From assembly GCA_951406725.2 (NCBI GenBank), contig OX597822.1, positions 34,720,001-34,784,000 on the forward strand: a stretch of DNA of 64,000 nucleotides, in the 5' to 3' direction. Position 1 is the stretch's first letter; every line of letters begins with the position of its first letter. This DNA comes from Octopus vulgaris (Eukaryota). Both the position numbers and the translations under genes were made by a program. Under the pieces are notes generated by a model, which searched no databases, was not told the DNA's origin, and saw nothing but the letters and a program-made list of their open reading frames with translations. Of the stretch, positions 12,686-64,000 are shown piece after piece.

Positions 12686-12721
<36 letters not shown>

Positions 12722-12726
<5 letters not shown>

Positions 12727-14351
12727 GCAGCCAAAATGTTCAGAACGGCATTGTTTTCGTCAGCAAAGTAGGTATACGTTTTTATAAAAATTGTTTTATA
12801 TTCTATAATTTTCACAGACAATAAATACGATATTAATTGTTAATGTCTGAGATTTCGGTGTAATTTGACAGGATAATACAAAAGTTATGGATGATTTAGT
12901 GATTTACTGCAAAACCCATGGCGGCCAAAATAATCAGAATGGTTGAAAAAATAACAAAATAATCAAAAATGACAGAGAATGCTGGAATTATTTAATATTT
13001 AGTGTGAAACCCTTTAGCTTCAATCACACTTTGACATCTTCGACTGCATGAGGAAATTAAATTTTCAATTTCTTGCTGGGTGATCTTATTCCATTCTTCC
13101 TGAAGGGCATTTCATAATTGCTCGGTTGTTTTAGGATTTCTGGCTTTCGAACGTTCGCCTAGAATGTTCCACACATTTTCAATAGGATTGAGATCTGGCC
13201 TTTGAGCAGACCAATCCATAACAATAACCTTTTCAGCCTTGAGTAAGTTCATGACCACCTTAGCCTTGTGACATGGAGCATTGTCCTGCATGAATATGGA
13301 TGGTCGCTTAGTTGAATTTCTCAGCACAGGCAAGACATGATCTTTTACAAGTTGTTTATAAACTCCTGCATTTACCTTTCCATGTAATCGCACCAAAGGG
13401 TCCACACCATCTCCAGATATCATCCCCCAAACCATGACACTTCCTCCACCGAATTTAACACTAATCTTAAAGCATTTAGGCGACAATTTTTCACCTACTT
13501 TTCTACGAACGTACCTTTTCCCATCTGAGCCAAATAACATAAACTTAGATTCATCACTGAAATGCACAGTTTGCCATTTTTCTTGAGAACACAACAGATG
13601 TTCGGTTGCAAAGGTAAGACGACACTTTTTATTCTTGGAGCTGATCAGTGGCTTCACTGCAGGTGCTCTTGCTTGTAAGTCATGTTTAATTAAACGACGA
13701 GACACAGTTTTTCGAGATAAGGTTTTCTTCAGTACAATGCTCATATCCCGAGAAACAGCAGCAGCAGTTTTAAATCTGTCCTTTTTAACCAACTTTACCA
13801 TAGCACGATCTTCTCTCTTGGTCATTTTTCTTAGCCTACCTGTAGACTTTCTTGCTTCACACGAACCACAATCATCGTAGACCTTAAGAATACCGTGAAC
13901 AACACTTTTTGACTTGTTAACAATATTTGCAATAGACCCAATACTAAAATTATCCTTCTTTCGAAGCTTAATAATCTGCTGACGAATTGGTAACGGAGTA
14001 AGTGGCATTATATTAACAAAGTACACTGTAGATATTTTTTACTAATGTTTAGGAAACGAACCGTCACGTAAACAAATTCAAAACATTAGAGTTCGCCGGT
14101 TAAATATATTAAAACACGGAGTAAAAGCAACCGTTCTGATTATTTTGGCCGCCATGGGTTTTACAGTAAATCACTAAACCATCCATAACTTTTGTATTAT
14201 CCACTCAAATTACATCAAAATCTCAGACAATAACAATTAATATTGTATTTATTGTCTGTTAAAATTTTAGAATATAAAACAACTTTGATAAAAACTTATA
14301 CCTACTTTTCTAACGAAAACAATGTCGTTCTGAACATTTTGGCCGCAACTG
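12722..14351 (-). mobile_element. Tc1-family DNA transposon with 224-bp IR/DR terminal inverted repeats
   Basis: TIRs 12722-12945 and 14128-14351, each with two direct repeats (gc(a/g)gccaaaat..tcagaa(c/t)gg); inserted in (TA)n. Confidence 0.95.
12992..14008 (-). pseudogene. Tc1 transposase (DD34E), 338 codons, one premature stop
   Basis: HFSDESKF, VKFGGGSVMVWG, QDNAPCH-34 aa-PDLNPIENVW; TGA at 13112-13114, then the frame continues to ...EAKGFHTKY*. Confidence 0.93.
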
Positions 14352-14425
<74 letters not shown>

Positions 14426-14444
14426 TCATATTCATTATTTTTTA

Positions 14445-14640
14445 TTCTCTTATTTGTTTCAGTCATTTGACTGCAGCCATGCTTCAATACTGTCTTTAGT
14501 CGATGAAATCGACCCCAGGACATATTCTTTGTAAGCCTAGTACTTATATCGGTATCTTTTGCAGAACCGCTAAGTTATGAGGACGTAAACAAACAAACAT
14601 CGGTTGTCAAGCGCTGGTGGGGGACAAACACAGACACACA

Positions 14641-14642
<2 letters not shown>
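14445..14642 (-). mobile_element. Family C SINE, 3' half
   Basis: Aligns to 4860-5060. Confidence 0.8.
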
Positions 14643-14695
<53 letters not shown>

Positions 14696-14797
14696 AGATA
14701 GATAGATGGATAGATTGATAGGTATATATATATATATATATATATAAACAAACAAACATCGGTTGTCAAGCGCTGGTGGGGGACAAACACAGACACA

Positions 14798-14828
<31 letters not shown>

Positions 14829-14855
14829 AAGAGATAGATAGATGGATAGATTGAT

Positions 14856-14891
<36 letters not shown>

Positions 14892-15032
14892 ATCAATCTA
14901 TCCATCTATCTATCTCTTTTATATATATATATATATATATATATGTGTAGGTCCCGGGTTGATTCGGGGTTAACCACAGTAAGTAAGGTACTCAATACAT
15001 AGCAGAGTAAAATTAATTTATTATATAGAAGG

Positions 15033-15083
15033 AGCTTCTACAGGACTAGTACTGTTTCATTCAAGAGAAATCTTCAGGAAGCT
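15033..15083 (-). ncRNA. Type I hammerhead ribozyme (H4 copy 1)
   Basis: agcttc-CTGAAGA-tTTC(tctt)GAAt-GAA-ACAG(tactagtc)CTGT-A-gaagct; 6-bp stem I, 4-bp stem III, GUA site; stem II is weak. Confidence 0.75.
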
Positions 15084-15462
15084 ATTTAACAAGAATTGTA
15101 TTAGCATTTATACATTTAGGCAGGTTTAAAGGAGTGGTGGTGGGGGACTTTTTTGGGGGTAGGCATAGCGCAAAATATCATACTTGGGGGAGTGGTCAAG
15201 GAGTCAGTGGTAAGTTAGATGAAAGAATAGATAAATAAAAAAAAAAATAAATAAAAAAATAAAAAAGTAAAAAAAAATAAAAAAATAAATAAATAAATAA
15301 ATAAAAAATATATATAAAAAAAAAATATATATATATATATATATAAAAAAATATATATATATAAAAAAAAAAAAAAAAAGGGGGGATAGAGTTATAGGTA
15401 AATAAGGAGATTCTCACTTATACCTATACACATATGTATACGTATCTACACATATATATATA

Positions 15463-15496
<34 letters not shown>

Positions 15497-15579
15497 GGTC
15501 CCGGGTTGATTCGGGGTTAACCACAGTAAGTAAGGTACTCAATACATAGCAGAGTAAAATTAATTTATTATATAGAAGG

Positions 15580-15630
15580 AGCTTCTACAGGACTAGTACT
15601 ATTTCATTCAAGAGAAATCTTCAGGAAGCT
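15580..15630 (-). ncRNA. Type I hammerhead ribozyme (H4 copy 2)
   Basis: As copy 1; one C>U change in stem III keeps a U-G wobble pair. Confidence 0.7.
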
Positions 15631-15993
15631 ATTTAACAAGAATTGTATTAGCATTTATACATTTAGGCAGGTTTAAAGGAGTGGTGGTGGGGGACTTTTT
15701 TGGGGGTAGGCATAGCGCAAAATATCATACTTGGGGGAGTGGTCAAGGAGTCAGTGGTAAGTTAGATGAAAGAATAGATAAATAAAAAAAAAAAATAATA
15801 AAAAAAAATAAAATAAAAAAAAAAAAAAAAAAATTAAATTTAAAAAAAAAATAAAAAATAAAAAAATATATATAAAAAATATATATATAAAAAAAGGGGG
15901 GATAGAGTTATAGGTAAATAAGGAGATTCTCACTTATACCTATACACATATGTATACGTATCTACACACATATACATACACACACATATACAT

Positions 15994-16044
<51 letters not shown>

Positions 16045-16339
16045 TACACACACATATACATACATATCTACATACACACATACATACACCCGCCCACATA
16101 TACAAATTTATACACATGCACATGCATATACCTGTCTACACATACACACACGTATATATGCATACACTCACTCCCATGCATGCACGCATACACACATGTA
16201 TATATATACACACGACCACGCATACATATACACAGAAAAATATATATTCATACGCACATACACTCATGCACACACAACACACCTAGTTCCCTATATACAC
16301 ATATTTACACCTATATATACATACACCCACATACACATA

Positions 16340-16379
<40 letters not shown>

Positions 16380-16409
16380 CACGCATACATATATATGTGT
16401 GTGTGTGTA

Positions 16410-16440
<31 letters not shown>

Positions 16441-16766
16441 GTATATTTATTGGTGTATATGTATAGACTAGCCTCCTAAAGTGTAGACACGAATCTGTAG
16501 GTACGAGTACGTATGTGTATATACGTGAACGTATGTAGATGTTTGTATGTATGAATATAACGCGTGCGTACGTGTATGTGTATGAGTGTACGAATGGGTG
16601 AATGTACGTGCTAATGAGTGTGCGTGCGGGAATGAGTACTTGCCTTCTAGTAGACAGACAAATGGACATGCTGCCATAGCCAGGACCCTTAGCTCTAGCG
16701 ATCAAAGATAACAAAAGTAATAAATGAAGATAATAAAATTAAAATTAGGGAATGGGCCTGTAGTGG

Positions 16767-16811
<45 letters not shown>

Positions 16812-17239
16812 GTGTATCTGTAGGTATGTATAGGTACACATGTGTATGTGTATGTGTATGTATGTGTGTATATGTATGTATGTGCACACATGTATATATA
16901 TGTATGCGTGTATATGTATATATATATATATATATATATGTACATATGTGTATGTGGGTGTATGTATATATAGGTGTAAATATGTGTATATAGGGAACTA
17001 GGTGTGTTGTGTGTGCATGAGTGTATGTGCGTATGAATATATATTTTTCTGTGTATATGTATGCGTGGTCGTGTGTATATATATACATGTGTGTATGCGT
17101 GCATGCATGGGAGTGAGTGTATGCATATATACGTGTGTGTATGTGTAGACAGGTATATGCATGTGCATGTGTATAAATTTGTATATGTGGGCGGGTGTAT
17201 GTATGTGTGTATGTAGATATGTATGTATATGTGTGTGTA

Positions 17240-17289
<50 letters not shown>

Positions 17290-17650
17290 GGTGTGTATGT
17301 ATATGTGTGTAGATACGTATACATATGTGTATAGGTATAAGTGAGAATCTCCTTATTTACCTATAACTCTATCCCCCTTTTTTTATATATATATTTTTTA
17401 TATATATATTTTTTATATATATTTTTTATTTTTTTTTTTTTTTATTTTATTTTTTTATTTTTTTATTTTTATTTTTATTTTTAATTTTTTTTTTTTATTT
17501 ATCTATTCTTTCATCTAACTTACCACTGACTCCTTGACCACTCCCCCAAGTATGATATTTTGCGCTATGCCTACCCCCCAAAAAAGTCCCCCACCACCAC
17601 TCCTTTAAACCTGCCTAAATGTATAAATGCTAATACAATTCTTGTTAAAT

Positions 17651-17701
17651 AGCTTCCTGAAGATTTCTCTTGAATGAAACAGTACTAGTCCTGTAGAAGC
17701 T
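17651..17701 (+). ncRNA. Type I hammerhead ribozyme (H4 copy 3)
   Basis: agcttcCTGAAGAtttctcttgaatGAAACAGtactagtcCTGTAgaagct; predicted cut after 17695; AATAAA just downstream. Confidence 0.75.
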
Positions 17702-17717
17702 CCTTCTATATAATAAA

Positions 17718-17760
<43 letters not shown>

Positions 17761-18284
17761 TATATACACATATACATACATATCTACATACACACATACA
17801 TACACCCGCCCACATATACAAATTTATACACATGCACATGCATATACCTGTCTACACATACACACACGTATATATGCATACACTCACTCCCATGCATGCA
17901 TGCATACACACATGTATATATATACACACGACCACACATACATATATACACAGAAAAATATATATTCATACGCACATACACTCATGCACACACAACACAC
18001 CTAGTTCCCTATATACACATATTTACACCTTTTATATATATATATATATATTTTTTTTTTATATATATATTTTATTTATTTATTTTATTTTTTTTTTTTA
18101 CTTTTTTATTTTTTTATTTTTTTATTTTTTTATTTATCTATTCTTTCATCTAACTTACCACTGACTCCTTGACCACTCCCCCAAGTATGATATTTTGCGC
18201 TATGCCTACCCCCAAAAAAGTCCCCCACCACCACTCCTTTAAACCTGCCTAAATGTATAAATGCTAATACAATTCTTGTTAAAT

Positions 18285-18335
18285 AGCTTCCTGAAGATTT
18301 CTCTTGAATGAAACAGTACTAGTCCTGTAGAAGCT
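18285..18335 (+). ncRNA. Type I hammerhead ribozyme (H4 copy 4)
   Basis: Identical to 17651-17701. Confidence 0.75.
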
Positions 18336-18346
18336 CCTTCTATATA

Positions 18347-18386
<40 letters not shown>

Positions 18387-18571
18387 CGACGGGCTTCTTT
18401 CAGTTGACGTCTATCAAATCCACTTACAAGTTTTTGGTCGGCCTGAGTCAAGAGTAGAAGACATTTGACCAAGATGCCATGCAGTGAGACTGAACCGAAA
18501 GCTACTTACCACATTGCCAATATATGTGTGCGTGCGTGCGCGCGTGTATAATCCAGGACTAGTTACTGTAA

Positions 18572-18880: not shown

Positions 18881-18927
<47 letters not shown>

Positions 18928-19092
18928 GTAAAGTATAATAGCCATCTCAATATGGCTAACCACAAAGGGTGGGTGTTACTGAAGCTTTTAGCCCCGGGAG
19001 ATCATCGTTTCCAGCTGGCTTTAAGCACACTATCTGTGTCCTTATGGTATTTGCAAAGGGAGGTCATCCCTTTCTCGTAGGCCTAAGTGAAA

Positions 19093-19137
19093 TGCACGGA
19101 CCGCAGTTTCGAGGTATTTACCTCTTGTCAACGGGCG
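19093..19137 (-). ncRNA. Hammerhead ribozyme, U3-A8 variant
   Basis: cgcccg-TTGACAA-GAGGT(aaat)ACCTC-GAA-ACTGCGGT-C-cgtgca. Confidence 0.72.
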
Positions 19138-19450
19138 GTAATCACCGGTTTACGATGAAAAGGAAGACCTTGTATGCAAATACTTAAGTGTTTTTCCAGC
19201 AACTTCCGTCACTGATTTCGAAAAACTGTCCGCAAGCAATAATAAATCTTCAGTAACACCCACCCTTTGTGGTTAGCCATATTGAGATGGCTATTATACT
19301 TTACAATGTTGAGCGGTTACTGTTTACATCTCGTTCAGAGATTTATTATTGATTGCGGACAGTTTTTCGAAATCAGTGACGGAAGTTGCTGGAAAAACAC
19401 TTAAGTATTTGCATACAAGGTGTTCCATTTCATCGTAAACCGGTGATTAC

Positions 19451-19495
19451 CGCCCGTTGACAAGAGGCAACAACCTCGAAACTGCGGTCTGTGCG
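19451..19495 (+). ncRNA. Hammerhead ribozyme, U3-A8 variant
   Basis: cgcccg-TTGACAA-GAGG(caacaa)CCTC-GAA-ACTGCGGT-C-tgtgcg; GUC site, predicted cut after 19489. Confidence 0.72.
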
Positions 19496-19805
19496 TATCA
19501 CTTAGGCTTACGAGAAAGGGATGACTTCCCTTTGCAAATACTATAAGGACACAGATAGTGTGCCTAAAGCCAGCTGGAGACGATGATCTCCTGGGGCTAA
19601 AAGCTACAGTAACACCCACCCTTACTGGTTAGCCATATTGAGATGGCTATTATACTTTACGTTGTCGAGCGGTTACTGTTTACATCTCGTTCAGAGATTT
19701 ATTATTGCTTGCAGACAGTTTTTCGAAATCAGTGACGGAAGTTACTAGAAAGACCCATAAGTATTTGCAAACAGGTCTTCCTTTTCATCGTAAACCGGTG
19801 ATTAC

Positions 19806-19850
19806 CGCCCGTTGACAAGAGGCAACAACCTCGAAACTGCAGTCTGTGCG
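19806..19850 (+). ncRNA. Hammerhead ribozyme, U3-A8 variant
   Basis: As above, with a perfect palindrome ACTGCAGT in stem III; predicted cut after 19844. Confidence 0.72.
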
Positions 19851-20454
19851 TATCACTTAGGCTTACGAGAAAGGGATGACTTCCCTTTGCAAATACTATA
19901 AGGACACATATAGTGTGCCTAAAGCCAGCTGGAGACGATGATCTCCTGGGGCTAAAAGCTTCAGTAACACCCACCCTTTGTGGTTAGCCATATTGAGATG
20001 GCTAGTATACTTTACATTGTCGAGCGGTTACTGTTTACATCTCGTTCAAAGATTTATTATATATAACTTAATTGGAAGTGGATGCGGGGCGTTCGTTCAT
20101 AAAATAACAAAATAATAAATAAAACATACGCATATATACATACATATATGTACATACCCACATCTATATGTATATATACAAGCATATATGGGTACAGGAC
20201 ACCAAAAAAAACGTAGAACATAATGAGAAATGAAAACATTAAGACAAAACATGGAAACGGACTTTTTTCAAACAACGAAAAAACAGAGCACAAGACAAAC
20301 AACACAAGGAATATTTCCTTTCTTCAACTGCCCCTGTTTCGGCTACTCCGTGTTTCGAAGGTAAGGGCAAGACACGACTTCTTGAAACAATCCTTCCCGC
20401 AAAGCAAATTAAATAAAATTTGAGATTTTTGCGGAGGGGTAAAATCCCATATTT

Positions 20455-20930
20455 TAGAACTGGGGATTTTTCATTTATGAAGACGTATTCCTGTATTTGT
20501 CTGAGTGTTGGGCTCTTCGGGTGCTTGGATAAAATGCGGATATGAGTTGACCCACGTTGCCTGCATGTTTGTCTTTGGCATGTTGATAGAGTATGGAGGA
20601 TTGTTTTTTGTCGTCCCACTGTCTTAAATGTACATTCAGTCTTTCAGCAATGCTCCTAGATGTCTCACTTATGTGTATCATGTTCTTGTCTTTACAAGCA
20701 CCTTTTATGCACCTTATGCTGTAGGCTACATTTCTAGTTCTACAGCTACTACCAGGGTCAATCCTACATACCAGGCAGTTATCATTGGTGCATATGGTAT
20801 TCTCGAAGGGGTACGTCCTACATAGTTGTGATCTCAGATTTTGCAGTGGAAAAATGCACTATGTCTAAAGATAGGTAGAGTAAAATTACATCCATACTAC
20901 TCACTACACAAACTGTGAGGTTGTTAGTAT
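20455..20930 (-). pseudogene. Penelope-like element C-terminal GIY-YIG endonuclease remnant (Nematis/Neptune-like Cys linker)
   Basis: LRSQLCRTYPFENTICTNDNCLVC...CRTRNVAYSIRC...C...HISETSRSIAERLNVH...H...H, then a frameshift to PTLRQIQEYVFI; putative 3' UTR/pLTR at about 20065-20450. Confidence 0.8.
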
Positions 20931-32651: not shown

Positions 32652-33408
32652 GATTTGATTTTGATTTTTCTAGTTTCAGCTAATGAGCTGTGGCCATGCT
32701 GGGGCACCGCCATTTGGTTTGCTACACGATTTTACCTCACGGATGCTTTTTAGCAAACGCCATCTGATGCATGAGAGAGTTCGATGCAGCTGCCCTCATC
32801 TGCACCTCCTGCCGTGAAGTTGGTTCATCCGGGACACCTGACAGGAAGAGATCCAGTCCTACTTTAAAGACATCCGCATCTACATCATGCAGGTCCCTCA
32901 GGTTCTTCGGGAGGATATTGAAGAGCTGTGGGCCTCTGAAGCCCAGGCTGTCACAGTATCTTGTCCTACATCTTGATGGCAAATTTGGAGTCCTTGGTAC
33001 TACGCAATGGCGTCCGGTTCTGGCATTTGTGTAACTCTCGATGCCAAAGTTTGGGACAAGTCCTTCCAGGATCTTCCAGATATATATTATGGCATATCTT
33101 TCTCGCCTACGCTCCAGGGAATAGAGCTTTAATATCTTGAGTCTTTCCCAGTAGCTCATATGCTGTACAGAGGCTATCTTCTTCGTGTAGCTTCGTTGGA
33201 TCGCCTCAAGTTCTGTGATCAACTTGACACTGGATGGTGACCATAGCTGAGAGCAATAGTCAAAGTGGCTTAGGACAAGTGTCTTCCAGAGGACCATCAT
33301 GGTTTCTTGTTCTCTTGTTCTAAAGGTTCTAAGAATCCATCCAGCCAGCCGTCTACATTTCATTGTCAGTTTAGCAACATGTACATGAAAGGTCGCGTCA
33401 TCACTCAT
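32652..33408 (-). pseudogene. 5'-truncated CR1/L2-group LINE (ORF2 C-terminus plus 3' tail)
   Basis: Open frame 33408 to 32737 with GWILRTF, DYCSQLWSP, LEAIQR, SYWERLKILKLYSLERRRERY; tail ends in short (aaatc)n repeats. Confidence 0.88.
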
Positions 33409-35411
33409 GTGTGTGTGTGGAGAGAGAGAGAGAGAGAGCGATAGACATAGGAAGAGGGAGACAAAGAGAGAGAAACAGCTTATCATTATATACAATGAAC
33501 CTTCAAACTTCATTGAGCCGTACCCAGTTAATCCGGATATCAAATAAACCAGACGAAATCTGAGTTAATCATGGATGAAAATGGGAAGATAATTTTTATG
33601 TTCCCAGTTACGAAATATTTGTGACAGGCTTCTGAGATAACACTACACAACCCATAACTAATAATATCATACAGCTTGGGCGGATGGCGAGATAATTCGA
33701 GAGGTGATGAAAATATGAACCGAAGATGAATAACATTTTACAATTTTTCACCAGTTCACAACATGTTAATTACTTGCTTTTACAACTCTACCTCTAAGAA
33801 ACATACGCTTTCTTTATTGCACTCAACAGGTCGCACAGACTTAGTATCTTCTTTTAATATTCGAATCCCATCATCATCTCTTCTCTTTCTATCTTTGTTC
33901 AGCTTGCTACTTACAAAGTAGCTATAAAATTTGCTGCTTGTATAATATTTATTCGCTTTCTAATAAACACCGCAATTTAGTGGAAAGAATTATCATGTAT
34001 AAATTCGCTGAAAATTTATAAGCTGAAAATAATTTACAGTGTACTTATTCTCCTCTTGCAGTATCATGATCAAATCCGCTCGTAATTTGTTTTCAGATCT
34101 AATAATATGCATTCAAGAAGCAAGCTTTAAGTTAGAATTAGTCTAAAATATGTGTATTTAGTTTTGATTTACTCTAGACTAGTAAACTCATCGGTAGCGA
34201 AGTAATAGAATGTTTCTCAGTATTATCAGCCGCCACCAACTGGGTGGACTTGGTGAGCACTACACAAACAACGAAGATAATAAATGGACAATCAGTACTG
34301 AGGATTTATTTACAGTTTTTAAATGTTCGTGCTGCATATTAGAACACTCCCTTCATCATTTTGATATCATCTGTACAGGTGTACGATGTGCTATGCGTCA
34401 GATGTTGAAGTGATAACAGAATAACTTGAGATGAAGTGTTTTGGTCAAAAAACACAATGCACCGCCCAAGAATGGAACCCACGATCTCGCAAGCGTGAGT
34501 ACAGCGCTCTGACCATTAGGCCATGCGCCACCATCGACGAATTAGGAGTGTGTATTTATTATAAACAACTCAACAAATGCAAAACTATAGATTTTGAGCC
34601 GCCATTTATGCAAATTGATTAGATGTTTTTTAATGACTGTAGACAGTCGGACAAGAATCACTGAGCTATAGTTTCAAATGTGTTTAAGTTCTCGTCAGCA
34701 ACCGTTTACTATGCAGTTAACTAACCACAGAAAAATTGTATGTAAAGCCATTTTTATTTGACCCTTTATTAAGTAAGGTAAAGTCCATTTTAGAAGATAT
34801 ACGTGAATACACCAGCAAGTTTGAACTTAGAATCACAAACCAACTAAACATTCTTCAAATACATGGAACTGTCACTGGTTTCATCTCTTGTCTCTGTGCA
34901 TAATCCATATTTACGCAAGGAGCAAACGAGAGAGACTTTACATAGTTAGCCTCCTAGAAATAGCAGTTAAAACATCTATCAAATCACCATCCACCGTTTT
35001 AGAAATGGTTAAGGAGAACAGTAAACGATGTAGCCTTTTATATCACATTTTGAGATAGGTCGCTCATGGCAGGAATGTTTTTAGCCATAGGTCTATTTGA
35101 TTGACAATTGTGAATGATAAGAGTTTAAATAAAAACGAATTTATATTTCAACGAACCGAAAACGAAAAATTCAAGCGTTTGTTTGACATGATACAAACAA
35201 CATCCAAATATCTCTTATAAATGAGCTCTAGCGCGTTAAAAAAAGGTAGGCGCATGTGTGGCTGTGTGATAAGAAGATTGCATCGCAATGACATGGTTCC
35301 GGGTTCAGTTCCACTGCGTGGAACCTTGCGTATGTGTCATCTACTCTAGCTTCGGCTCGACCAAAGCCTTGTGAGTGGATCTGTGGATCTGGTAGACGGA
35401 AACTGAAAGCG

Positions 35412-56116: not shown

Positions 56117-56279
56117 GAAAGTTTGTTTGGTAAAGCACGTGGGTGAATATATAAGAAAATAGTAAAGTGTGAAAAAACGACAGAAGGCTTAAATGTTAAA
56201 AAATATATATATTTGTGTCAAAATGTCTGGAGAATATTGGAAAAATTTTTTTTTTCCCTTTCCTTAAAATGACAAGGGA

Positions 56280-56786
56280 ATTAAAAGCTACAAACAGCCT
56301 AAATCACTTAAAAAGATTCTCACAAAGGCAAAATTGTCTTCTAAAATTACGGATGCAAAAGTAAAAAAATGTGGTAGATCGAACTGTGCAACATGTCCTA
56401 ACCTATTGGAAGGATCAGAATTCTACTTTAAAGAGGGACAGAAATTTAAGATCAAATCTAACTTTACTTGTGCCTCTGAAAACATAATTTATGTTATTAA
56501 ATGCTCGGGCTGCCACCAAGACTACGTGGGTTCCACGGGACTATCACTCAGGCGCAGATGCACACTGCATCGACAACAGATTGCATTCCCAGAATATAGA
56601 ATGATACCTTTTAGTGAGCACATTGAGAAATGCGCAAAGCAACTACTGCCACAATTTTTAATCTTCCCATTTTACCAATGTGCTTTCGGATCATCAACAC
56701 AAATGAGACTGAACAAGGAAACATTCTTCATTGAAAAGTACAAACCCAGACTCAACCATCCGAACATACTGACACAGAGAAAGTAA
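56280..56786 (+). pseudogene. 5'-truncated Penelope-like element: Cys linker plus intact GIY-YIG endonuclease (Neptune-like)
   Basis: Open frame IKSYKQPKSLKKIL...KKCGRSNCATC...FTCASENIIYVIKCSGC..YVGST..LRRR..H...H...RLNKETFFI...PRLN. Confidence 0.88.
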
Positions 56787-63887: not shown

Positions 63888-63937
63888 TTTGTCAAAATAT
63901 TTTCGTCGCTAAACTCCGCGACCTGTTCACTGACAAA
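63888..63937 (-). ncRNA. Hammerhead ribozyme, G3-C8 variant
   Basis: tttgtca-GTGAACA-G-GTCGC(ggagttta)GCGAC-GAA-AATATT-T-tgacaaa; 7-bp stem I, 5-bp stem II, palindromic stem III. Confidence 0.72.
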
Positions 63938-63954
63938 GTCCGTGCTGCACGGAC

Positions 63955-64000
63955 TTTGTCAGTGAACAGGTCGCGGATTTTAGCGACGAAAATATTTTGA
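63955..64000 (+). ncRNA. Hammerhead ribozyme, G3-C8 variant (3' end cut by the window edge)
   Basis: tttgtca-GTGAACA-G-GTCGC(ggatttta)GCGAC-GAA-AATATT-T-tga... Confidence 0.68.

Follow-up and report, generated by a model that had tools for sequence, protein, structure and literature searches.

A four-hammerhead composite in Octopus vulgaris is probably two nested head-to-head insertions of a young Penelope-like-derived repeat

The window analysed here is a 64,000-nt stretch of a microsatellite-rich animal genome, and at 14947–18352 it holds a composite that self-comparison of the window resolves into five pieces with direct, inverted and flipped segments: U1, U2, a spacer with U3, F and U4 (Table 1). 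Much of this layout had been described by a sequence-only reading of the same DNA, and its outline was borne out. The four full hammerheads that it listed are all present, as type I motifs, two per strand, with cores at 15077(−), 15624(−), 17657(+) and 18291(+); the two minus-strand units are indeed 547 nt apart and are 99% identical over 300 nt, while the plus-strand pair is spaced by 634 nt. The inverted repeat, put at about 830 bp around a spacer of about 500 bp, has arms at 15555–16405 and 16885–17726 with 95.0% identity over 860 columns, and its spacer measures 479 nt. The segment said to flip back at 17750–18030 spans 17723–18044, with 96.9% identity to 16007–16323, and the fourth hammerhead unit does follow it, at 18030–18352. 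The AATAAA reported after each hammerhead was found at 15022, 15569, 17712 and 18346, and the cleavage motif GUA had been placed correctly at 17695. The region was also rightly called non-coding: we found no RT or GIY-YIG open reading frame in 14947–18352, which contains only microsatellite-derived frames. All four units share the ribozyme motifs, but the last 64–69 nt, a tail, are present in U1 and U2 only. U1 and U2 reach the same last base of the element (14947 and 15494); U3 and U4 end 64 and 69 nt earlier. The copies carry private differences as well (a C>T change in U2, an additional C in U3 and five differences in F), and tract lengths also differ among them.

Table 1. Features of the composite and its flanks, with the arms assigned to two proposed insertion events, an outer one (B) and an inner one (A)
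Feature	Position	Strand	Remarks
Host repeat, left half (target element, abundant)	14424–14801	+	Matches 12 further places in the window, not counting itself and a local duplicate
Tandem duplication within left host flank, 159 nt	14586–14746 / 14745–14882		Self-comparison
Fold-back palindrome in host microsatellite DNA, adjoining the insertion	14802–14944		98.6% self-inverted
Left target tract, (TA)12	14920–14943		End of the fold-back palindrome
U1	14947–15466	−	Putative 3′ part of the tail-bearing arm of B; its 5′ end (15466) marks the 3′ edge of a (TA)n tract internal to the element
Optional 3′ tail, 64–69 nt	14947–15015	− (in U1)	Ends in a small stem-loop with an A/C-rich loop
Hammerhead 1, type I	15033–15083	−	Predicted cut after 15039; motif and stems
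(TA)13	15467–15492		Putative half of the internal tract of B, left junction of A
U2	15494–~16403	−	Putative tail-bearing arm of A; 5′ limit approximate
Hammerhead 2	15580–15630	−	U-G wobble in stem III from a C-to-T change; predicted cut after 15586
Head-to-head junction of A	16339–16446		Imperfect (89%) low-complexity palindrome
Spacer and U3	~16400–17723	+	Putative tail-less long arm of A; 5′ limit approximate
Hammerhead 3	17651–17701	+	Predicted cut after 17695; motif and stems
(TA)14	17723–17750		Putative other half of the internal tract of B, right junction of A
F (flipped segment)	17751–18029	−	Putative 5′ continuation of U1 in B; its end is the 5′ edge of the internal (TA)n tract
U4	18030–18351	+	Putative tail-less inverted arm of B
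Hammerhead 4	18285–18335	+	Predicted cut after 18329; motif and stems
Right target tract, (TA)16	18352–18383
Host repeat, right half	18384–18496	+	9 other matches in the window

All four copies contain the core CUGAAGA...GAAA...GUA. Stem I measures 6 bp and stem II 3 bp, the latter with a basal U-U; stem III consists of 3 bp and the A15.1-U16.1 pair. A stem-aware descriptor returned six loci in the 64-kb window, four of them being the hammerheads of U1–U4; across 100 block shuffles of the window the same descriptor found a mean of 0.01 loci and a maximum of 1. Rfam hammerhead models gave no hit at the gathering threshold over the window and none among 140 matches at E values up to 10, and the Rfam miRNA matches in the window are low-complexity noise. 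Since these models score none of the four copies, the ribozyme call rests on the motif and the stems. Other hammerhead-like cores lie in different repeats of the window, at 1141(−), 3250(−), 46953(−), 24355(+), 24640(+), 34698(−) and 63398(+); those at 1141, 24640 and 34698 pass a descriptor, and the others show core motifs only.

Stem II has no Watson-Crick 10.1-11.1 pair at its base, and the sequence-only reading had raised the concern that this weak stem might abolish cleavage in the consensus. The U-U is present in 4/4 copies and shows no variant at ≥5% in four of four public sequencing runs, and U10.1-U11.1 has been described as a natural hammerhead variant and the best tolerated mispair (PMC3088659). 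Thus, the mispair does not refute activity, and we rejected the idea that it is a decay mutation of this copy.

Folding places other constraints on the ribozymes. With no more than 12 nt of sequence past the cut site, stems I and III prevail; from 16 nt onwards they give way to an 8-bp hairpin that spans the cut site (P about 0.9), and a hairpin inside the core competes with stem II. These estimates, which use nearest-neighbour energies and ignore the tertiary core, suggest that the ribozymes would be mostly off. A double hammerhead between two copies could form through the palindrome in the stem III loop: in the two same-strand pairs the loop palindromes are predicted to pair with P 0.6 and 0.99, but the complete active dimer is 8.5 and 6.7 kcal/mol less favourable than the ensemble. 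The allele of this locus at 15050 lengthens that palindrome from 4 to 6 nt, as read from the sequence. A PLE ribozyme that requires help from a protein has been described (PMC11167929), and in a recent preprint 8 of the 9 retrozyme dimers assayed did not cleave (bioRxiv 10.64898/2026.07.22.740005). One public run (X1, whose RNA label is a guess) has a summed depth of about 2000 downstream of the cut site and 80–260 upstream; we do not count this step as cleavage because runs X23 and X6 also dip there and because other families branch off at 15083.

The unit belongs to a non-coding repeat family with many variants in all four public runs examined. Across a wider set, 23 of 24 runs (three organism labels, eight studies) contain 0.49–0.60 of the words of 15494–16880, of which the 286-nt core makes up 0.20; this suggests that the filler travels with the family, with the caveat that low-complexity words inflate the shared fraction. 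No RNA run is on record among the 24 as containing them, which has no bearing on expression. Contigs placed on the 286-nt core numbered 2154, 1331, 114 and 134 in the four runs, depth not being equivalent to copy number. In X21, X23 and X6 most depth differs from the locus at 15050 (86–92%), 15085 (59–74%) and 15133 (67–78%), and all four local copies bear the allele that is in the minority in DNA-labelled runs at each of these positions. These shared minority alleles place the four copies in one sub-family. The 220-nt cores of the copies are 0–2 edits apart, which supports the earlier suggestion of recent formation. The locus alleles at 15085 and 15133 account for 88% and 96% of depth in X1 and for 41% and 33% in X6, which has the same organism label; with one run each and an RNA label that is a guess, this is a weak hint that this sub-family is the expressed one.

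The ends of the family recur in these runs. It ends into (TA)n at 15016 in at least 12 contigs of X21 and at least 14 of X23, and at 15012–13 in at least four contigs of X23 and at least one of X6, while the tail end at 14948–9 runs into (TA)n in at least three contigs of X21 and at least one of X6. Both end types, tailed and tail-less, are therefore recurrent, and the ends of U3 and U4 match family ends. Loose ends at 15083 and 15158 (X21, X23, X1 and X6) join other sequences upstream of the ribozyme-plus-tail module, which makes it possible that this 3′ end is common to several families. Among the loose ends listed for the 286-nt core none had an ORF-like continuation, and no go-back or circular joint was listed over this core in the contigs of the four runs, with which circles would still be compatible. 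Exact-pattern scans of JGI metagenomes returned 0 loci. We found no earlier description of the family in the literature; repeat libraries (Repbase/Dfam, paper supplements) may include it.

The flanks at 14424–14801 and 18384–18496 are the two halves of one host repeat. At six places measured (of the nine right-half matches) the halves are spaced by 25–149 nt across a microsatellite, compared with a gap of 3582 nt here; the composite thus sits in the microsatellite of the host repeat, with colinear flanks. The target is (TA)n on both sides, by which any TSD would be masked. The window has 84 tracts of (TA)8 or longer, 12 of them inside the composite. The host fold-back palindrome and the tandem duplication beside the insertion could represent snap-back synthesis at the nicked target.

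We consider the composite to be best explained, with a probability of roughly 0.6, by two recent insertions of one young, non-coding, hammerhead-bearing sub-family derived from PLEs, one nested in the (TA)n of the other. The last unique base of F is the 5′ edge, and the first unique base of U1 the 3′ edge, of the same internal (TA)15–16 tract on the same strand, and the break neither removes nor repeats any unique sequence; this indicates that F and U1 are one continuous arm that was interrupted there. Excising U2, the spacer and U3 leaves F and U1 facing U4, and the excised part is U2 facing the spacer and U3. The sequences fall into the same two groups. In the filler, U2 and U3 have 0 edits in 278 nt, whereas F differs from both by four substitutions and one 2-nt insertion; five events all falling on one of three equal branches has P=0.012, or about 0.04 if two adjacent substitutions of F are one event. 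In the T-rich tract, U1–U4 differ by 11–12 edits and U2–U3 by 14, against 16–20 for cross pairs, and the longest common strings are 36 and 35 within pairs versus 19–26 across; this tract is of low complexity and U2 and U3 differ there by as many as 14 edits, so that the support for the grouping is moderate. Each event has one tailed and one tail-less arm, in keeping with reports that PLE insertions have an optional tail on one arm only (PMC8557442, PMC3846280).

The analysis shows how the pieces lie, that they are of two sequence types, that their ends are typical of the family and what the target is; the enzyme, the order of the events and the time gap between them we infer. In the outer event (B), a PLE protein would nick both strands in the (TA)n of the host repeat and copy element RNA from each nick. 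One cDNA, begun at the tail end, would cover U1, the internal (TA)n and F. A second, begun at the tail-less end, would give U4, and the far ends would be joined head to head in an insertion of about 1.15 kb. The inner event (A) would repeat this process within the internal (TA)n of B, from an RNA that differs slightly, yielding U2 with the tail and the spacer with U3 without it (about 2.2 kb) and driving U1 and F apart. The spacer would be a further 5′ part of the element, and the ribozymes would be passengers of its 3′ end. For a PLE, work in vitro showed two RT start sites as well as cutting and extension of both DNA strands (PMC11167929), and a secondary PLE insertion (Pen2a in Pen3) was described in a simple-repeat stretch of another PLE (PMC3846280). 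The PLE-type origin and the inverted 3′ copy put forward in the sequence-only reading are supported, the head-to-head pairs being U1–U4 and U2–U3. Its proposal of multiple template jumps in one insertion is not the best reading, since the pieces form two self-contained pairs nested at one (TA)n, and the 547-nt 'tandem' is probably a by-product of that nesting.

Several observations weigh against nesting. Independent insertions need not share the three minority alleles at 15050, 15085 and 15133, and a chance hit on a sister copy would be uncommon with 84 tracts of (TA)8 or longer, yet is expected over many copies. The identity of U2 and U3 could reflect conversion between arms, the element has no open reading frame by which to connect it with an autonomous PLE, and its tail exceeds the reported 30–40 nt. 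The shared alleles, the 0–2 core edits and the common polarity suggest that the two events were linked in source or in time. A rival reading is one coupled integration: RT would stall in the (UA)n of RNA B, switch to RNA A at its 3′ end, produce the inverted pair from it and then return to B at the tract where it had left. A coupled reaction that leaves and resumes at one tract gives the same layout as nesting, and it would account for the three minority alleles common to all four copies, for cores that are 0–2 edits apart in two pairs of the same polarity (tail on the left) and for outer junctions that are without exception (TA)n; self-priming and template jumps have, moreover, been proposed for PLEs (PMC3846280). 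It needs two templates, four template changes and an exact return point, as against two ordinary events, and a version with a single template for all five pieces was rejected given the five private changes in F versus 0 between U2 and U3. We regard a coupled integration as unlikely, though it deserves serious weight.

A single insertion followed by DNA-level template switching (fold-back or microhomology-mediated replication) at the self-complementary (TA)n appears improbable. In its favour, the junctions are (TA)n or otherwise TA-rich, the left flank carries a fold-back palindrome (14802–14944) and a host tandem duplication, and the shared minority alleles would fit a single founder; against this, U3 and U4 end where family ends recur in other runs, the repeated pieces come without host flank (the left-flank palindrome and duplication aside), and F differs from its supposed template, whereas U2 and U3 are identical. 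We see still less reason to attribute the composite to mis-assembly or chimeric reads in a low-complexity inverted-repeat region, which seems very improbable given the private differences among the copies (C>T in U2, +C in U3, five in F, tract lengths), the family-typical ends and the flanks that are colinear halves of one host repeat. What speaks for an artefact is that PLE structures of this kind are known to trouble assemblies (PMC8557442), that the window has other fold-backs (14802–14944 and 63892–64000, the latter a 109-nt palindrome of 97% at the window end) and that the junctions are known from the assembly alone.

By the tests run the element is neither an autonomous PLE nor a tandem retrozyme, and judged from its sequence it behaves as a PLE-mobilised non-autonomous element: it has a 3′ terminal hammerhead, an inverted 5′-truncated copy, a tail at one end and a (TA)n/AT-rich target, and its dispersed tailed and tail-less ends into (TA)n, with no head-to-tail tandem of short units, depart from the pattern of non-LTR retrozymes. 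EN+ PLEs (Penelope/Poseidon, Neptune, Nematis, Hydra) are described as having pLTR partial tandems, an inverted 5′-truncated copy and an optional tail (PMC8557442, PMC3846280), and the element shares with them a type I hammerhead near the 3′ end, the head-to-head copy, the one-arm tail and (TA)n targets that hide TSDs. It differs from them in having no RT or GIY-YIG open reading frame in about 1.4 kb of element and in its tail of 64–69 nt compared with the 30–40 nt reported. Unlike in the described case of Pen2a in Pen3, both nested partners here belong to one sub-family, with an internal (TA)n of the element itself as target.

The closest experimental parallel is Anolis Poseidon PAc (PMC11167929), whose two nearby RT start sites give tailed and tail-less ends, with both strands cut and extended. 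According to the same report, PAc uses AT-rich targets including itself, its ribozyme is inactive without protein and its RT starts in an AC-rich stem-loop; the tail here ends in a small A/C-rich stem-loop. PAc differs in being autonomous, with the tail in its ORF start, while the element here is known from sequence anatomy alone. Metazoan non-LTR retrozymes (PMC7229834; bioRxiv 10.64898/2026.07.22.740005) are, like this element, non-coding, non-autonomous and equipped with a type I hammerhead whose stem III loop is a palindrome that permits a double hammerhead, and a PLE origin has been proposed for them. Unlike retrozymes, the locus has no head-to-tail array of 150–450 nt units; its same-strand pairs, at 547 and 634 nt, have (TA)n junctions inside them and seem to result from nesting. 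The inverted arms also invite comparison with another retroelement. In the twin-priming 5′ inversion of L1, primers on opposite strands lead to an inverted segment joined to a direct one. Here, in contrast, there is no poly(A) tail and no discernible TSD, and both arms start in the 3′ end region of the RNA.

The sequence-only reading had further proposed that read-through transcription would give long dsRNA, a substrate for editing. Folding supports the first part: full read-through of either strand is predicted to give nested duplexes, U1 with U4 (a 228-bp helix) and U2 with U3. The same duplex would sequester all four ribozymes, with 50–51 of 51 ribozyme positions paired with the antisense arm, so that long dsRNA and cleavage are alternatives. 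Each strand meets many AATAAA motifs before the second arm. We rejected AATAAA as an established poly(A) signal: it stands where the tail-less arms end, (TA)n and not poly(A) comes next, and the region as a whole has 20 AATAAA on the plus and 19 on the minus strand. No RNA-only A>G or T>C change was listed for X1, whose RNA label is a guess; as contigs drop rare variants, this carries no weight on editing either way. Editing of inverted repeats is known, and heavy editing of Penelope repeats in a lizard has already been reported (PMC5625713), so the dsRNA angle adds little.

A 2026 annotation of Octopus vulgaris reports 31 recently active Penelope-like families (PMC13282606). At 56268–56786 (+), between (TA)n tracts, lies a 3′ remnant of a PLE open reading frame with a C-X4-C-X2-C motif before a weak GIY-YIG match. 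This remnant matches 8 of 172 candidate proteins, one relative being 99% identical; of three relatives rescanned, all have an RT domain and two a GIY-YIG domain, the RT+GIY-YIG proteins being 650–760 aa long. RT+GIY-YIG elements thus exist in the genome; the DNA of the remnant does not match the element core, and the remnant is no proof that such an element drives this family. A frame at 20475–20858 (−) resembles a decayed GIY-YIG domain by eye, and a 275-aa frame at 32737–33564 (−) resembles a C-terminal LINE ORF by eye; neither has a Pfam match. A second, unrelated composite at 18925–20060 starts at (TA)n and likewise combines tandem and inverted copies: partial tandem units of 355 nt (19244, 19600 and 19955) and an inverted 325-nt copy (93%). 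It contains no hammerhead passing the descriptor. Upstream of the host repeat, a Tc1/mariner transposase (PF01498, PF13358) is encoded at 13112–14038 (−) between 260-nt terminal inverted repeats (12689–12945 and 14128–14387, 92%).

Beyond the nesting proposed here, it is conceivable, though distinctly doubtful, that the element regularly homes to its own internal (TA)n. Nesting would then occur in the same reaction or soon after and not by chance, and the same-strand pairs (547 nt on the minus strand, 634 nt on the plus strand) would arise from it. The strengthened stem III palindrome could form a double hammerhead if transcription started inside the element, and the released unit-length RNA would be able to circularise. 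If this were true, it would be a visible route from dispersed PLE derivatives to tandem retrozymes.

PLE repeat architecture, nesting and editing have already been described, and as two nested insertions the locus is largely an ordinary example. It is also a clean worked one, in that its young arms would record both RT start sites and two-strand priming, and this genomic anatomy supports the in vitro PLE model. It further brings to light a highly repeated non-coding hammerhead family that is missed by Rfam and, if self-nesting is common, may bear on how PLEs form complex tandem and inverted structures and on how retrozyme tandems arise.
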